Positions 21,933 through 29,629 of a DNA stretch of 48,405 nucleotides are shown here, in pieces. Within the stretch, counting starts at the first letter, position 1, and every line of letters begins with the position of its first letter. Both the position numbers and the translations under genes were made by a program. The notes beneath the pieces were generated by a model, which was not told where the DNA came from, did not search any database, and was given only the letters and a program-made list of their open reading frames with translations. Source of the DNA: Thiohalospira sp. Its GTDB lineage: Bacteria > Bacteroidota > Bacteroidia > Bacteroidales > UBA12077. The DNA lies in assembly GCA_046538755.1 (NCBI GenBank), contig JBKHIH010000018.1:1-48405 (forward strand), written 5' to 3'.

Positions 21933-24299
21933 ATGCGTAAAAAAGCATATGAAAATACCCTGGAAGATATTTTTATTGTTGATTCTGATAATATCTACGA
22001 AAATGAGATTATTCAACAATGTTTTGATGTAGTTGGTGCTTTTATGGTAGCTGTTAATTTAAAAGGTAACGTAACATTTGCTAATAAAACTGCAGCCGAG
22101 ATGTTAGGGTGCGATAAAAAAGAAATTGCAGGATTAAATTTTATAAAAAACTTTGTTGTTGAACAAAAACAAAACCAAATTAAAAAAATTTTTGAGTCGG
22201 TTTTAGAAGGAAAAACATTTAATAAAAAATATACGAGGTATTATATACAGGGAAAAAAGAAACGGCAGAAAATTATAGAATCTAAAAATGTAACGATACA
22301 AGATAAAAACAACCAAATTTTGGGTATATTAATTTCGGGCAGGGATGTTACCGATTATGTATTAAAACAAAAAAACTTACAAACCGACCTCAGTTTATAC
22401 AGGTTGCTTGCAAATAATATTCCGGATATTAATCTTTTTATTTTTGATAAAAATCTGAAATTTATTCTGGCTGAAGGAAATGAAATGAAAAATAACGATT
22501 TGAATGGTGATTATTTTGAGGAAAATATCCTTTATGAATTACCGGACAAAGAACTTCGTAAAATATGGACCCCGCTTTTTGAATCTGCACTGAAAGGCAT
22601 AGAATCATCGAAAGAATACAAATACAATAATTATCATTATTATATTTGGGTACTTCCGGTTTATACCCGAAGAAAAAAAATATTTAGAGGAGTTGCAATA
22701 ACACAAAACATTACAGAAGATAAACAAATAGAACGCAAACTGAAGAAATCGAAAGAAGAGGCAGAAAGAGCAAATCGCTCCAAAACAGATTTTTTAGCAC
22801 GAGTTAGCCATGAGATTAGAACACCTTTAAATGCTATTTTAGGCTTTGCCGAACAATTAAAGCAGTCTGAATTAAATGACCAACAAAATGATTATGTTAA
22901 TATTATAGAAAAATCATCGGAACACCTGCTATCTTTAATTAATGATATTCTGGTTTTATCTAAAATAGAAGCAAGACAAATACGATTTGATAAATCTCCT
23001 TTTAAGTTAAGATATACTATTAAATATCTCTATAACACCATGTTGGTTAAAGCCAACGAAAAAAATATCTGGTTTACCTACGATGTGGATGAAAAGTTAG
23101 ATCAGGTTCTTATTGGGGATCAGTTTCGTTTAAAACAAATTTTACTTAATCTGTTGGGAAATGCCATTAAATTTACAAATACGGGTTCGGTTGAATTAAA
23201 ATGTGTATTGGATGAAGAAACACATGATACAGTGAAAGTTAGATTTGATGTGATTGATACAGGAATAGGTATTAAATCTGAGAATTTAAAAAGTATTTTC
23301 GATAGATTTAAACAAGCCAATTCAACTATAACAAGAACATATGGAGGAACCGGTTTAGGGCTTGCTATTTGCAAAAACTTAATAGAATTACAGGCAGGTA
23401 GTTTATCCGTATCAAGTAAAGTTGGAGTAGGAACAACATTTACTTTTGTTATTCCTTATAAAAAAGGTAAACCTGATGATTTTATACCGGATGATATTAA
23501 AACAATTGATTCAAAGAATTTAAAAGATACAAAAGTTCTGTTGGTTGATGATGACAAATTCAGTCGTTTACTGGCAAAAACCCATTTAGATAAATTCGAA
23601 TGTAATACAACATTAGCTGCCAAGGGGTCAGATGCAATATCCTATTTAAAAAATCAAAATTTCGATATTGTATTACTCGATATACATATGGCTGAAACTA
23701 GTGGAGTTGATGTTGCTAAATTTATCAGGAAACAAAAAAAAGATAAAAACACAAAAATTATGGCTGTTACAGCTGCCGTATTAAAAGATGATATTCAGAA
23801 ATATTTTTCTGTTGGAATGGACGATTTCTTAATTAAACCTTTTAAAGAGAATGAATTATATAATAAAATGTGTGAATTACTCAGGATTAATAAAGGTAAG
23901 GATGTTAAAGAAAACAAGCAGCATATTGTAGAAGAAATTACCCAGGCTAAAAAATATGATTTATCAGATCTTGTAAAAATGGCCAATGGGGAAAAAGCGT
24001 TTATTAATAGTATGCTTAGTATTTTTATCGACAACACGGAAAGTACCATTCATTTATTTAAGAAATATCTGAAAGATGAAAATTGGGAGGAAATAGGAGA
24101 AACTGCTCATAAGATTTTACCATCATACAATCATCTTAAAATAAATGATGTTGTGCATAAATTAAACGAAATAAAAGAGCTTACACTTATTAATCCAAAT
24201 TATAAAGAGGTTCCTGAGCTTACTCAGAGTACGATTCATTTAATGGAAAAAATATTGGAAGATTTAAGAGAAGAGATGAATCAACTAACGGTTAATTAA
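21933..24299 (+). CDS. Cytoplasmic PAS-containing hybrid sensor histidine kinase (PAS-PAS-HisKA-HATPase-REC-HPt)
   Basis: H-box (VSHEIRTPLNAI), N/G boxes (LLGNAIKFT, DTGIGI, GGTGLGLAI), receiver-domain segment (VLLVDDD...LLDIHM) and a C-terminal HPt-like region (HKILPSYNHL). Confidence 0.8.
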   Translation: MRKKAYENTLEDIFIVDSDNIYENEIIQQCFDVVGAFMVAVNLKGNVTFANKTAAEMLGCDKKEIAGLNFIKNFVVEQKQNQIKKIFESVLEGKTFNKKYTRYYIQGKKKRQKIIESKNVTIQDKNNQILGILISGRDVTDYVLKQKNLQTDLSLYRLLANNIPDINLFIFDKNLKFILAEGNEMKNNDLNGDYFEENILYELPDKELRKIWTPLFESALKGIESSKEYKYNNYHYYIWVLPVYTRRKKIFRGVAITQNITEDKQIERKLKKSKEEAERANRSKTDFLARVSHEIRTPLNAILGFAEQLKQSELNDQQNDYVNIIEKSSEHLLSLINDILVLSKIEARQIRFDKSPFKLRYTIKYLYNTMLVKANEKNIWFTYDVDEKLDQVLIGDQFRLKQILLNLLGNAIKFTNTGSVELKCVLDEETHDTVKVRFDVIDTGIGIKSENLKSIFDRFKQANSTITRTYGGTGLGLAICKNLIELQAGSLSVSSKVGVGTTFTFVIPYKKGKPDDFIPDDIKTIDSKNLKDTKVLLVDDDKFSRLLAKTHLDKFECNTTLAAKGSDAISYLKNQNFDIVLLDIHMAETSGVDVAKFIRKQKKDKNTKIMAVTAAVLKDDIQKYFSVGMDDFLIKPFKENELYNKMCELLRINKGKDVKENKQHIVEEITQAKKYDLSDLVKMANGEKAFINSMLSIFIDNTESTIHLFKKYLKDENWEEIGETAHKILPSYNHLKINDVVHKLNEIKELTLINPNYKEVPELTQSTIHLMEKILEDLREEMNQLTVN

Positions 24300-24421: not shown

Positions 24422-25774
24422 ATGAATAAAATCCTGGTCATTGATGACGACTCATATATATGCAACTTACTGGTTAATTACCTTGAAAAGAACGGGTATC
24501 AGGCGCAATATTCGCTTTCTGGAAAGAAGGGAATACAATTGATTGAAAAAAATGAGTTCGATTTGGTATTATCCGATTTTCGATTACCGGATTGCGATGG
24601 CATGGATGTTTTAAAAAAAATAAAAGAATTAAAACCTTATCTCCCTGTTATTATCATGACAGCCTATGCCGATGTTCGTATGGCTGTAAAGTTAATAAAG
24701 TCAGGAGCATTCGATTATGTAACAAAACCTATCCAGCCGGAAGAAATTTTGACATTAATCAATAAGGCTACAAAAAAACATAATAATAAAGAAAAAAGTT
24801 ATTCACCCGGGAAGGATTTTATCATTGGAAAAAGCAAAGAAATACAGGAAGTTATGCAACACGTTAAGGTGGTAGCACCAACAGATATAACTGTTCTTAT
24901 CGAAGGTGAAACAGGTGCAGGGAAAGAGTACATTGCCAGAGCAATTCATTATTCAAGTAAACGTAAAAAGAAACCTTTTATAGCAGTCGATTGTGGCGCC
25001 ATTCCAAAAGAATTGGCTAACAGCGAACTGTTTGGGCATGTCAAAGGAGCTTTTACCGGAGCTATTAACGATAAAATTGGATTTTTTGAACAGGCCAAAG
25101 GAGGTACACTTTTTCTGGATGAGATAGGAAATTTACCCTATGAAAACCAGATAAAGCTTTTAAGAGCATTACAGGAAAAGGTAATTAGCAGAGTAGGAGA
25201 TAACAAAGATATAAAAGTAGATGTAAGGCTTATTGCAGCAACTAATGTTGATTTAATTAAACAGCTGGAAAATAATGAGTTTAGGGAAGATTTATACCAT
25301 CGTATCAATGGTTTTAAAATTAAAATTCCTGCACTGAGAGATAGAGGAGAGGATATCCTTGAATTTGTTGATTTTTTTATAAAAAAAGCCAATGAATCAT
25401 TTCAGAAAAATGTACTAGCAATAGATGATGAAGTTAAAAATTTATTTTTAAAATATGATTGGCCTGGGAACATCAGGGAACTGCAAAATATCATAAACCG
25501 TGCTGTATTATTAACGAGCGGCCAGCTAATCAAACCCGAAGTATTACCGCAGGAAATTGCTCAATTATCTGGTAAACAAGAAACAAGTATTCCGGAAAAA
25601 GCCGGTAATATGAATGATTTAAAAGAAGCAACCGAAATAACAGAAAAAGAAATTATTGCTAATGTGTTAATAAAAACCAATTATAACAAATCAAAAGCAG
25701 CAAAAGTGCTTAATATTGACCGAAAAACACTCTACAATAAAATAAAGCAATACGAAATAGAGATACTGAAATAA
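24422..25774 (+). CDS. Sigma-54-dependent response regulator (NtrC family)
   Basis: Receiver domain (VIDDD...DFRLPD). AAA+ sigma54-interaction domain (GETGAGKE, GAFTGA, ELFGH). C-terminal Fis-type HTH. Confidence 0.85.
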   Translation: MNKILVIDDDSYICNLLVNYLEKNGYQAQYSLSGKKGIQLIEKNEFDLVLSDFRLPDCDGMDVLKKIKELKPYLPVIIMTAYADVRMAVKLIKSGAFDYVTKPIQPEEILTLINKATKKHNNKEKSYSPGKDFIIGKSKEIQEVMQHVKVVAPTDITVLIEGETGAGKEYIARAIHYSSKRKKKPFIAVDCGAIPKELANSELFGHVKGAFTGAINDKIGFFEQAKGGTLFLDEIGNLPYENQIKLLRALQEKVISRVGDNKDIKVDVRLIAATNVDLIKQLENNEFREDLYHRINGFKIKIPALRDRGEDILEFVDFFIKKANESFQKNVLAIDDEVKNLFLKYDWPGNIRELQNIINRAVLLTSGQLIKPEVLPQEIAQLSGKQETSIPEKAGNMNDLKEATEITEKEIIANVLIKTNYNKSKAAKVLNIDRKTLYNKIKQYEIEILK

Positions 25775-26136
25775 CTTACCCTTTTTATTACTCAAATTTT
25801 TATTTTCCCTTGTGGAATCCTATCTCAATTGTGGATTTATTCTACACTTTTTATGGTATCCGTTTATTAGTAAATTGGTTACATCTCTGTTATGTAAGCC
25901 GTTGATGATGTGTCAATAAAATTGGCATGGATTTTCAATAAACTATAATAAAAAAGGAAACAAAATTTAAAAAAAATTGAGTAATTATAATAAATCTTTA
26001 GAATTATATAAAACAGGCAAATTAGCTTTTTTTACTGGCAAGTGATGAAAGTAAATTTATCACAGGATCTGTAATTACAATAAGTGTAGGAATAAGCGTG
26101 TAAAAATTAAATTATAAACATTAAAAACAAATTATT

Positions 26137-26739
26137 ATGGCTTTTAAATTACCAGAATTAGGATTTGACTACGATGCATTCGAACCACACATTGATGCCC
26201 AAACAATGGAAATACACCATACAAAGCATCATGCTACTTATTTAAAAAAGTTCAATGCAGCGGTAGAAGGAACTGAACTTGAAGAAATGAGCCCTTCTGA
26301 AATTTTTGCCAATGTTTCAAAATATGATGATTCGGTACGTAATAATGGAGGGGGATTTTTTAACCATGCTCTTTTTTGGACGTTCTTAACGCCAAACGCT
26401 CACGAAAATTTAGATAAAGATTTGGAAGATGCTATTGTTAAGTATTTTGGAACCTTAGAAAATTTAAAAGAAGAATTCTCTGAAGCTGCAAAAACCCAGT
26501 TTGGATCAGGTTGGGCATGGTTGGTTAAAAAAGATAATGGAGAATTAGTGGTTACATCTTCTCCAAATCAGGATAACCCGTTAATGGATATTGCACCGAT
26601 TAAAGGTACACCCATTTTATGTCTCGATGTATGGGAACATGCTTATTATTTAAAATATCAAAATAAGCGCCCGGAATATATTAAAGCATTCTGGAATGTG
26701 GTGAACTGGGATAAAGTAGCAGAATTATATCATAAATAA
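26137..26739 (+). CDS. sodA: Fe/Mn superoxide dismutase
   Basis: Canonical Fe/Mn-SOD motifs ([31 protein letters not shown]). Confidence 0.9.
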
Positions 26740-26753
26740 AAAAAAATTGTAAA

Positions 26754-27044
26754 ATGAAAGATTATCACGAACAACCCAATGAATTAAGCACAGAAACACG
26801 TGATTTTGTAAGAGCATTGAATTCTTTAAAAGAAGAAATTGAAGCGATAGATTGGTACCAACAGCGTATGGATGTTGCTTCCGATCAGCAATTAAAAAAA
26901 ATATTAAAGCATAATCGCAACGAAGAAATGGAACATGCTTGTATGGCATTGGAATGGTTGAGAAGAAATATGGAAGGTTGGGATGAAATGCTTAAAACAT
27001 ATTTATTTACTGAAAAAGAAATTACAAAAATTGAAGAAAAGTAA
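26754..27044 (+). CDS. Ferritin-like encapsulin cargo protein (EncFtn/Flp family)
   Basis: About 96 aa and helical, with an ExxH di-iron motif (NEEMEHACMALEW). It lies immediately (60 bp) upstream of a family-1 encapsulin shell gene and 15 bp after sod. Confidence 0.6.
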   Translation: MKDYHEQPNELSTETRDFVRALNSLKEEIEAIDWYQQRMDVASDQQLKKILKHNRNEEMEHACMALEWLRRNMEGWDEMLKTYLFTEKEITKIEEK

Positions 27045-27104
27045 TTTCGGAAAGTATTACTAAAAACTAATGTATTAGGATTTGAATCATAAAATAATAT
27101 AGAA

Positions 27105-27908
27105 ATGAATATACTCAAAAAACAAATAGCGCCTTTATCAGATAAGGCATGGAAAGAGATTACTGATCAGTCATCAGAAATATTTAGTATTTACCTGACA
27201 GCCAGAAGTTTTGTTGATTTAAATGGGCCAAATGGATTGGAATATGGAGGAGTTTCTACAGGTAGATTAGTACAAACAAACAAGGAAAACAAAGAGAATG
27301 TAAATTATGGTTTAAGGGAAATAGTTCCGCTTGTAGAAATTCGTAAACCTTTCGAATTAAATATTTGGGAAATGGATAATGTTGACAGAGGTGCATTGGA
27401 TGTAGATTTGGAACCTGTTGTTAAAGCTGCTAAACAGGTAGCTCTTTTTGAAGAAGATTTAATTTATAAAGGATTTAAAGACGGACAGGTTCAGGGCCTT
27501 GAAAAAAGCTCTATACACCCAAAAGTTACTTTGCCAAACGATCCTACGAAGTTGTTGAAAGTTATTGGTGAACAAGTTACTGTTTTTGAGAAACATGGTG
27601 TTAAAGGCCCATTTACCTTAGTTGTTAATGATAAAAAATGGCAGGATTTAGCCAGTCTGGAAAAGGGTTACCCGATTGTTAAACAATTAGAAGAGGTAAT
27701 GAATATTAAAGTAGTAATTAATTATGGAAATTATAACTCATTTTTTGTTTCAGAACGAGGCGGTGATTTTGAACTGTCCATTGGACAGGACATTTCTATA
27801 GGTTATGATAGCCATGATACAGAAAAAGTAAAGCTTTACTTTACCGAATCTTTTACCTTTAGAGTACTCGGGCCCGAAGCAGTAATCGTACTGGAAAGCC
27901 CAAAATAA
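27105..27908 (+). CDS. Family-1 encapsulin nanocompartment shell protein (linocin M18-like, HK97 fold)
   Basis: Strong end-to-end resemblance to Thermotoga-type encapsulin: LKKQIAPLSDKAWKEITDQSSEIF ... SERGGDFELSIGQDISIGYDSHD ... LYFTESFTFRVLGPEA. Length 267 aa. Confidence 0.85.
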   Translation: MNILKKQIAPLSDKAWKEITDQSSEIFSIYLTARSFVDLNGPNGLEYGGVSTGRLVQTNKENKENVNYGLREIVPLVEIRKPFELNIWEMDNVDRGALDVDLEPVVKAAKQVALFEEDLIYKGFKDGQVQGLEKSSIHPKVTLPNDPTKLLKVIGEQVTVFEKHGVKGPFTLVVNDKKWQDLASLEKGYPIVKQLEEVMNIKVVINYGNYNSFFVSERGGDFELSIGQDISIGYDSHDTEKVKLYFTESFTFRVLGPEAVIVLESPK

Positions 27909-28077
27909 AAAATAACTTGTTAGAAGGATATTGCATGAAGGTTCGACGGAAAGATTTGTGTGAGGCTTAAGCGGGAGACACCGGCAACAAAAAAGATTAT
28001 TAAAATTTGAATTTGTAAATCGCAGAACTAAGCGCTAGCGTTCTCATGACAGAAGGAAATAAAAACAATTGTTTAAC
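27904..28077 (+). repeat. Copy A of a ~140-170-bp conserved intergenic element. It begins at the encapsulin stop codon and carries a 34-bp insertion relative to copy B.
   Basis: About 92% identical to the reverse complement of 41153-41291. The shared core includes GCTTAAGCGGGAGACACCGGCAACAAAAAAGATTATT. Confidence 0.8.
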
Positions 28078-28112
28078 TAAAATATATTCTCGTGAAGATT
28101 CTTACAATAACT

Positions 28113-28597
28113 ATGAACCCTGTTATTGATAAAACAACAATAACTGAGTTGGTTATACCACATAATTTGTATTAGATATATCAGGATAACCTTTGAAGAT
28201 GGCCCTGGATGAAGGCATTTCTATGATAAAAACTAAATTTAAAGGAACTGTATTTTTTGCTGGATAAAGATAAAAACCATTATGGACATTGAAGAAGCAG
28301 CTCATAAGCTTGTTGAGAATGATGCCTGTACAATGCTTATTATATCTCTGGGTACAAAAGGAGTTATGTTAACAAGCAGGAGGTATTAATATTGAATATT
28401 TTGTGCCTCCGATAATACCAGTTAAATTATCTGTTAGAGCTGAAGATTCAATGATAGCAGGAATTTTTAATGGATTTATAAAAGCTTATTGGAGTTCCCA
28501 GACAATAAAATATGGTTTTGCTGCAGGTATATCCGCAAAAATTTCTGAAAGATGTAGGTTTTACACTAAAGAAGTAACGGATAAAATTTATAATTAG
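28113..28597 (+). pseudogene. Degraded duplicate of the downstream pfkB-family kinase gene
   Basis: Fragments in three different frames match the intact paralog at 28700-29629: MNPVIDKTTITE (N-terminus), AHKLVENDACTMLIISLGTKGVMLT (middle) and PPIIPVKLSVRAEDSMIAGIFNGFIKAYW (C-terminus). Stops and frameshifts interrupt them. Confidence 0.75.
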
Positions 28598-28699
28598 GTA
28601 AAAACTTATAAGGATAAGGAATCGAATTGCTATTGAAATCCTTTATATTAAGTTTATTGGTTACTTTTTTATGGTTTGTTTATTAAAAGATTTTATTTA

Positions 28700-29629
28700 A
28701 TGAAAGTTTTAACATTAACAATGAATCCGGTTTTAGACAGAAATACAAGTACAAAAATGGTTATGCCGGATAAAAAAGTACGATGCACCAGGCCAGAATT
28801 GAAACCCGGAGGTGGGGGAATTAATGTTTCCAGAGCTATTCAAAAATTAGGATACGAGTCTTCAGCATGTGCTTTGGCGGGTGGAACAAACCGTGGAAAA
28901 ATAGAAGATTTACTTGCAAAACATAATATTAAAACACACATAATAGATTCAGGAACCGATTGCAGGGAAAATTTATTTGTTTTTGATGAAACTACAGGCC
29001 AGATGTACAGGTTTATAATGCCCGGAGATCATGTAATTGCCGACGAAGAAAAAATATTACAACAAATTAAGGATATTGCAATAAATTACAATTATGTAGT
29101 TGCCAGTGGTAGTCTGCTTCCGGGAATATCGACTGAATTTTATGCAAAGTTGGCTAAATTTTTTAAAGAAAATGATATTAAATTCATTTTGGATACATCA
29201 GGCCCGGCGCTTAAAAATGCTATTCAAGAGGGTGTATACCTGATTAAGCCCAATTTAAGAGAACTTGCCAGTTTGGTAGGAAAGGATAAGTTAACAGGAA
29301 TAGACCAGGAAAAAGCTGCAAATGAAATTTTAGAAAAGGGGCAGGCTAATGTTATTGTATTATCGCTTGGAGCCAAAGGTGCAATGTTGGCCCAAATTGG
29401 ACATATAATTGAATACATTACTCCTCCCACAATGCCAATAGTTAGTCCTGTGGGAGCCGGCGACTCAATGGTAGCCGGAATTATTACCGGGTTTATTAAA
29501 GGTTTTTGGCCAACAGAAGCAATTCGATATGGAGTAGCAGCAGGTACAGCCGCGGCCATGCAACCTGGTTCGGAACTTTGTACTAAAGAAGATACCGACA
29601 GGATATGGAAATGGCTAAAGCCTGATTAA
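28700..29629 (+). CDS. PfkB-family sugar-phosphate kinase (Pfk-2 / 1-phosphofructokinase / tagatose-6-P kinase subfamily)
   Basis: Motifs GGGGINVSRA and VGAGDSMVAGI, the FruK/LacC/Pfk-2-type anion hole. The start was chosen at the internal Met (MKVLTLTMNPV); the longest ORF begins at 28676. Confidence 0.75.
   Translation: MKVLTLTMNPVLDRNTSTKMVMPDKKVRCTRPELKPGGGGINVSRAIQKLGYESSACALAGGTNRGKIEDLLAKHNIKTHIIDSGTDCRENLFVFDETTGQMYRFIMPGDHVIADEEKILQQIKDIAINYNYVVASGSLLPGISTEFYAKLAKFFKENDIKFILDTSGPALKNAIQEGVYLIKPNLRELASLVGKDKLTGIDQEKAANEILEKGQANVIVLSLGAKGAMLAQIGHIIEYITPPTMPIVSPVGAGDSMVAGIITGFIKGFWPTEAIRYGVAAGTAAAMQPGSELCTKEDTDRIWKWLKPD

Follow-up and report, generated by a model that had tools for sequence, protein, structure and literature searches.

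A probable Bacteroidota encapsulin operon joining superoxide dismutase to an EncFtn without a targeting peptide

A 48,405-nt stretch of DNA from Thiohalospira sp. (contig JBKHIH010000018.1), the whole of which is called the window below, carries three genes on one strand that encode a superoxide dismutase (SOD), a short ferritin-like protein of the EncFtn type and a family-1 encapsulin shell protein. Homology identifies these three products with near certainty, and we consider it reasonably probable that the genes form a stress operon under sigma54/two-component control, which would combine a cytosolic Mn-type SOD with an iron-sequestering EncFtn-encapsulin. The EncFtn ends without a linker or a C-terminal targeting peptide (TP), while the shell protein retains the residues at which TPs dock. 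A further proposal, which is speculative and may well be wrong, is that, in the family-1 encapsulins of this Bacteroidota clade, the ferroxidase cargo is loaded with neither linker nor canonical TP, a lysine-bearing tail taking the place of the TP and the EncFtn decamer lying flat on the shell wall.

The short EncFtn and its shell

The three open reading frames (ORFs) were found at the positions given by the initial annotation, and strong homology matches confirmed each of them. The 96-aa protein had been proposed to be ferritin-like, and profile searches bore this out, with matches to PF22277 (EncFtn-like; E 4e-41, 139 bits against a cutoff of 27) and TIGR04535 (142 bits, cutoff 125). Identity to the EncFtns of known structure from R. 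rubrum, H. ochraceum and N. europaea is about 55-60% (E ~1e-26), and the ferroxidase residues E28, E58, H61 and Y35, which align with E32, E62, H65 and Y39 of the R. rubrum protein, are invariant among its relatives. An AlphaFold2 (AF2) model of the monomer has a mean pLDDT of 81 and places helices at residues 13-41, 45-72 and 76-84. The last stretch, residues 85-96, is modelled outside any helix and at low pLDDT, and this tail of about 12 residues is predicted to be flexible. The shell protein, annotated as a family-1 encapsulin, matches NF041155 ("family 1 encapsulin shell") with 259 bits (cutoff 100), PF04454 (E 3e-73) and, over its full length, T. maritima encapsulin 3DKT (E 3e-62, ~47% identity).

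The initial annotation had also found no canonical TP on the 96-aa protein. The TIGR04535 match agrees with this, covering profile positions 1-92 of 114, after which the protein ends; it stops where the R. rubrum (140 aa) and H. ochraceum (131 aa) EncFtns run on into a linker and a GSLGIGSL-type TP. Among the 120 closest EncFtn homologue clusters, which are 73-94% identical to the query and are Bacteroidales, Bacteroidota or Sunxiuqinia where the source gives a name, 115 are 95-98 aa long and end in YLFTEKDI[TV]KIE[DE][DE]. Four of the five longer homologues owe their extra length solely to upstream start calls, and the fifth, P0107 (76% identical), carries an acidic linker that ends in the TP-like NIRIGKIK. 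The lack of linker and TP is, by this comparison, a clade-wide trait of these EncFtns. A TP hidden behind stop-codon read-through or a frameshift was considered and rejected: none of the three frames of the 60-nt spacer between EncFtn and shell genes encodes a TP (read-through would add FRKVLLKTNVLGFES before the next stop), and this spacer is only 4-20 nt in most relatives. A search of the 94 ORFs of the window for another TP-bearing cargo gave none, the sole weak pattern match lying in a 68-aa antisense ORF. Short tails turned up in EncFtns of several lineages in an exhaustive search, most often the N. europaea type, TDKPIAHE, which is unlike the window tail. Many N. europaea-type proteins (P0130, P0132, P0135, P0137, P0164 and others) are 124-238 aa long and have the core at their extreme C-terminus, preceded by 30-150 aa of upstream sequence that could reflect miscalled starts or real N-terminal domains.

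Gene order was tabulated in 91 related loci from genomes and metagenomes (individual loci are given L numbers), and the orthologous operons keep the 96-aa protein. A short EncFtn is followed by a shell gene in 23 of the 31 de-duplicated loci with enough downstream sequence, across a gap of 4-292 nt. These short EncFtns are mostly at least 70% identical to the query (shell-less outliers, 65-68%), and their shells are 46-86% identical to that of the window. A second class of long EncFtns, with an acidic linker and a TP of the form DLGIGKIK, LNIGKMK or LGIRKI, is 63-79% identical to the query and has a shell gene in nearly all cases, the shells being 33-48% identical to that of the window. In a neighbour-joining tree, the shells that accompany short EncFtns all fall in one clade, with a mean identity of 57% within it and 42% to the TP-partnered shells. 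Mutagenesis of the K. pneumoniae encapsulin showed that TP binding depends strongly on R34, D229 and I230, and D38 forms a salt bridge to a lysine of the TP (PMC10960027). The window shell has all four residues (K. pneumoniae numbering). Among 17 non-redundant shells whose partner is a short EncFtn, R34 is conserved in 100%, D38 in 94% and D229 in 94%, and position 230 is I or L. Decay or remodelling of the TP site was likewise considered and rejected, as there are no group-specific indels and the group-specific substitutions are conservative or scattered (T32, I39, T52, Q157, E258). The tag is gone from the cargo, and the socket is still there in the shell.

What remains of the cargo C-terminus in the window is LFTEKEITKIEEK (clade consensus FTEK-[DE]-I-[TV]-K-I-E-[DE]-[DE]), and its length of ~12 residues falls within the range of 7-12 residues of bound TPs (PMC10960027). 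Position 92 is K or R in 21 of 23 shell-linked short EncFtns, within I-[TV]-K-[IVL]-E, compared with 2 of 36 TP-bearing EncFtns, in which it is mostly E; five more distant short EncFtns without a shell have E or H there, as in the TP type. The tail core I-x-K-I also resembles the I-G-K-I core of the TP in the sister clade. This pattern is suggestive of a tail that has turned into a minimal built-in tag.

The initial annotation had offered two readings of the missing TP, an EncFtn with a divergent TP or a partner that is not encapsulated, and this is the right question to ask. Encapsulation of the short EncFtn is slightly favoured in our judgement, because the two genes have stayed together, the docking site has been kept, and mineral storage by EncFtn depends on the shell. 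The likeliest route in our assessment, put forward only tentatively, is loading through the tail docked in the TP site. A bolder version of TP-less loading would have the co-encoded SOD enter the shell by binding EncFtn. Several points count against loading of this kind. The pattern I-x-x-[IL]-E-E is found as well in TP-bearing EncFtns, where it immediately precedes the linker, and it may belong to the core instead of acting as a free tag. The Lys92 association is confined to one clade, as is that of SOD described below. The residues of the TP site could persist for structural reasons or for another TP-bearing cargo elsewhere in the genome. Eight short EncFtns, three of them close relatives, lie beside OsmC or other genes with no adjacent shell. 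A 2024 review left the encapsulation of TP-less EncFtns open (PMC11202242), and we found no experiment or structure showing a TP-less EncFtn entering a shell.

The main rival explanation, which we hold to be possible though unlikely, is that the short EncFtn is a free cytosolic ferroxidase decamer working beside SOD, the shell taking other, TP-bearing cargo or serving as an externally supplied iron-mineral sink. The missing TP and linker are what such a protein would be expected to show, short EncFtns of this kind were first classed as non-encapsulated (PMC11202242), and shell-less examples stand next to OsmC (L014, L033) and, with an N. europaea-type tail, next to a catalase gene (L089); a second, TP-bearing cargo would suit the preserved TP site equally well. 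However, EncFtn and shell genes stay adjacent throughout a clade in which shell identity falls as low as 45%, mineral cannot be retained by EncFtn decamers that lack a shell (PMC8346489), the window has no TP-bearing ORF, and the derived basic tail is common to the shell-linked short EncFtns, not to the five more distant shell-less ones.

Linkage of sod to the EncFtn-shell pair

The SOD of the window matches Sod_Fe_N (E 1.6e-28) and Sod_Fe_C (E 1.2e-41) of Pfam. The NCBIfam Mn-SOD model gave 234 bits and the Fe-SOD model 185 bits, both scores being under the equivalog cutoffs. The four metal ligands are present and the motifs HHTKHH, NHALFW and DVWEHAYY were all found, as were the Mn-type signatures GGG (GGG...NH) and NQD, and the enzyme is predicted to be Mn-specific. 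It has neither an N- or C-terminal extension nor a TP, and is probably not a cargo.

The EncFtn gene of the window starts at the 15th base past the sod stop codon, leaving a spacer of 14 nt, and sod lies 15-36 nt upstream of EncFtn in 12 de-duplicated loci in which the SODs are 58-89% and the shells 50-86% identical to those of the window. L026 (6001-7995) has sod at the other end, downstream in the order EncFtn, shell, sod, which is a second, independent arrangement tying SOD to the EncFtn-shell pair. The coupling of SOD to this pair, proposed in the initial annotation, was upheld by the comparison of classes: sod adjoins the EncFtn-shell pair in 13 of 23 de-duplicated short-EncFtn loci, L026 included, and in none of 31 TP-bearing loci (Fisher p = 1e-6, a value that overstates the number of independent events, the association being confined to one clade). 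The SOD-linked loci fill one sub-clade of the neighbour-joining tree of shells, within which a Sunxiuqinia branch appears to have lost the linkage.

We strongly favour a functional coupling of SOD to the EncFtn-shell pair. It is improbable that SOD is a mere neighbour placed there by historical accident, with neither co-regulation nor a common function. Such an accident would agree with the ~10 of 23 short-EncFtn loci that have no adjacent sod, including the Sunxiuqinia loci L002, L003 and L012, and with the absence of a TP and terminal extension from the enzyme; it is hard to square with a spacing of 14-36 nt that is kept even where the SODs are only 58-66% identical, with the different gene order in L026 and with the complete absence of sod from the TP-type loci. 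Moreover, no terminator-like site was found between the sod, EncFtn and shell genes, and a promoter element in common precedes sod.

The sequence P0218 (93 aa) looks like a chimera: the C-terminal half of an EncFtn, ...TDKEIVKIE, runs into an Fe/Mn SOD-like C-terminus, ...FVDAIWNVLNWDEVSRLLQET, perhaps through rearrangement or misassembly at an EncFtn/sod junction. Of the shell-less, TP-less short EncFtns named above, two lie directly upstream of an OsmC-family gene (L014 541-1440 and L033 297-1030), and the one with the N. europaea-type tail lies directly downstream of the catalase gene (L089 16-551), which suggests that TP-less EncFtns pair more widely with enzymes that detoxify reactive oxygen species (ROS).

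A natural EncFtn-shell fusion was considered and discarded: two stop codons separate the genes, and the reading frame that they have in common in the window and in L001 is not kept in L002, L004 or L005. The common frame is also the one observation that would fit a recent truncation (nonsense mutation) or assembly artefact as the cause of the missing TP, a reading that we dismiss, together with that of the shell as a prophage capsid remnant, given the short length kept in 115 of 120 homologue clusters, the loss of the frame relation elsewhere and the intervening stop codons, a shell score far over the NCBIfam equivalog cutoff with no match in a PHROG scan of the shell protein, and neighbours that are housekeeping and stress genes. 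The prophage origin had been named in the initial annotation as an alternative; no phage genes were seen in the window or among the ORFs examined in related loci.

Proposed regulation and function of the operon

Table 1. Features of the operon and its upstream region (window coordinates)
Feature	Position	Strand	Description	Support
sod	26137-26739	+	Fe/Mn-family superoxide dismutase, 200 aa, Mn-type signatures	Pfam, NCBIfam, motifs
EncFtn, short form without linker or TP	26754-27044	+	96 aa; ends ...YLFTEKEITKIEEK	
Family-1 encapsulin shell protein	27105-27908	+	HK97 fold, size typical of T=1 shells; 267 aa	
Hybrid sensor histidine kinase	21933-24299	+	PAS-HisKA-HATPase_c-REC, HPt-like C-terminus	Pfam; H-box HEIRTP at residue 293
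Sigma54-dependent response regulator	24422-25774	+	REC - AAA+ Sigma54_activat - HTH_8; presumed activator of the operon	Pfam E 7e-71; GAFTGA sigma54-contact loop at residue 209
Enhancer-like direct repeats	25811-25837	+	TGTGGAAT-N11-TGTGGATT	Cross-locus conservation
Sigma54-like -24/-12 element	25923-25938	+	TGGCATGGATTTTCAA	214 bp upstream of sod ATG
SDR gene 3'-end remnant (deletion scar)	26029-26097	+	69 nt	tblastn and DNA alignment with L001

The sigma54 regulator and histidine kinase that had been noted upstream of sod were confirmed by their Pfam domains (Table 1). The hybrid kinase is also found upstream of the operon in L001, L004 and L006, and orthologues of the activator, 64-81% identical, lie upstream of sod in L001, L004, L006 and L023. 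Alignment of the orthologous regions downstream of the activator gene revealed two kinds of conserved element. The first is a pair of TGTGGAWT direct repeats (25811-25818 and 25830-25837), located ~115 and ~95 bp upstream of the -24 element; the repeats occur at the same distances in L001, L011 and L023, and as a single copy in L018, L027 and L029, and they are a putative binding site of the activator. The second is a sigma54-like element, TGGCAYG-N3/4-TTYCA, which precedes the first operon gene by 45-215 bp in 13 loci (background, 0.043 per kb). Some of these loci lack sod, and in them the element lies directly ahead of EncFtn. The motif is not significant inside the window alone (1 found, 0.55 expected), and its support comes from the conservation of its position across loci.

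Control by sigma54 and the two-component system is likely in our view, taking into account some evidence to the contrary. The -12 half is TTYCA, not TTGCW, with the canonical -13 G replaced by T or C (the sole departure from the sigma54 consensus), and a search upstream of sod with the strict consensus TGGCACG-N4-TTGCW gave no matches. We found no reference for sigma54 promoters of Bacteroidota, and a 2011 paper on sigma54 is silent on this phylum.

Related loci point to a larger operon in the past. In L001 (2645-4951) and L023 (3598-5366), a gene for a secreted protein of ~500 aa with six BON domains (OsmY-like) lies between the promoter and sod; it is followed by an SDR gene in L001 and by a 68-aa CsbD-like ORF in L023 (a weak match, under the Pfam cutoff), and then by sod, EncFtn and shell. 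In its ancestral form the operon seems to have served general stress. The SDR remnant of the window is 65% identical to the L001 SDR over 23 aa (tblastn, E 1e-6). The window lineage has evidently deleted ~2.3 kb comprising the SDR and BON genes, which would have brought the promoter up to sod, because the 3'-end of the SDR gene persists where L001 has intact SDR and BON genes.

If the operon works as we propose, the PAS hybrid kinase and the sigma54 activator would turn it on through the TGTGGAWT repeats and the -24/-12-like promoter. SOD would clear superoxide, which frees Fe2+ from Fe-S clusters, and H2O2 would be produced; EncFtn would oxidise the freed Fe2+, and the shell would store the Fe3+ mineral. 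Together, SOD and the EncFtn-shell pair would remove both Fenton reactants. In the least certain step, the tagless EncFtn decamer would still be loaded, its 12-residue tail docking into the preserved TP site, and, having no linker, it would be held directly on the shell wall as in archaeal EncFtn-shell fusions.

Several observations concern the surroundings of the operon and regulators in other loci. The neighbours in the window are ordinary metabolic, regulatory, housekeeping and stress genes, the kinase, the regulator and pfkB among them, and an Rfam scan of 25500-28800 gave no matches. The 767-nt gap downstream of the shell gene contains decayed pfkB-family fragments (28080-28603) that match the intact pfkB (28676-29629) at its residues 5-31 and 170-315; in L001, pfkB directly follows the shell gene, and the fragments look like a pseudogenised tandem duplicate. 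In L029 (1-1375), a sigma54 activator 56% identical to that of the window is divergent from a short EncFtn, and between the two genes, 48 nt ahead of EncFtn, are a TGTGGAAT repeat in single copy and a TGGCACGAAATTTCCA element. L075/L079 has a shell-less short EncFtn ending in ...KEGEISH (L079 3598-3876). It is preceded by genes for a histidine kinase, a sigma54 activator with 41% identity to that of the window and a second response regulator; a gene for a patatin-like phospholipase follows. Sigma54 regulators may be linked to EncFtns beyond the clade of the window.

Relation to known systems and significance

The unit shares with the family-1 systems of T. maritima (3DKT), R. rubrum (5DA5) and H. 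ochraceum (7OE2) the order of cargo gene and then shell gene, the EncFtn ferroxidase residues and the TP-docking residues. Unlike those systems, its cargo has no linker or GxLGIxxL-type TP, and the unit adds a gene for SOD, a sigma54 two-component system and a -24/-12-like promoter. Short EncFtns without a TP were named "s-FLP" in 2024 (Eren et al.; PMC11202242) and are typified by N. europaea NE0167 (PDB 3K6C). The window EncFtn resembles them in consisting of the core only, at ~95 aa, with no apparent TP and no long disordered C-terminus, and it matches 3K6C with E 1.5e-26; it differs in its tail, which in the s-FLP type is LFT[D/E/N]KPIAHE (TDKPIAHE in N. europaea) and in the window clade TEKDI[TV]KIE[DE][DE]. 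The EncFtn of the window clade is also consistently followed by a shell gene, whereas four N. europaea-type contexts, mostly short contigs and hence weak evidence, have no adjacent shell, one of them following a catalase gene.

Two further systems offer partial parallels. In the archaeal EncFtn-shell fusions (P. furiosus, 5N5E/2E0Z), the ferroxidase domain is held at the shell interior without a long linker or TP, as the EncFtn of the window would be if it is loaded; in contrast to the fusions, the window has two genes separated by stop codons, the spacer ranges from 4 to 292 nt across loci, and the common frame of two loci is not conserved. The FDH-DyP-Enc-RpoH unit of K. pneumoniae (PMC10960027) is likewise a family-1 operon in which a conserved redox enzyme that has no TP and is not a cargo is encoded directly upstream of the cargo gene, with a dedicated regulator nearby. 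It has formate dehydrogenase in place of SOD, DyP in place of EncFtn and another type of regulator, and its cargo carries a canonical TP.

Family-1 EncFtn encapsulins are already known, as are, since 2024, the TP-less s-FLPs. Superoxide is unmentioned in a 2021 genome survey of encapsulins and in a 2025 review, and our literature search found no paper joining "encapsulin" and "sigma-54". We found no prior description of a large Bacteroidota clade in which a TP-less cargo with a derived basic tail is still tightly linked to a shell whose docking site is intact, nor of a recurrent SOD linkage or of sigma54/two-component control of an encapsulin operon.

Loading through a C-terminal TP is treated as a defining rule of the family-1 encapsulins and is the basis of their use in bioengineering. 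A clade that keeps the gene pair and the docking site without linker or tag is a natural test case for the encapsulation of s-FLPs, and TP-less loading, if true, would join TP tethering and gene fusion as a third way of loading. The sigma54/two-component control offers a concrete regulatory handle. The links of short EncFtns to SOD, OsmC and catalase point to a general anti-Fenton pairing, in which a ROS-detoxifying enzyme is matched with an iron oxidiser. Many Bacteroidales are anaerobes, and the operon could be an aerotolerance module.

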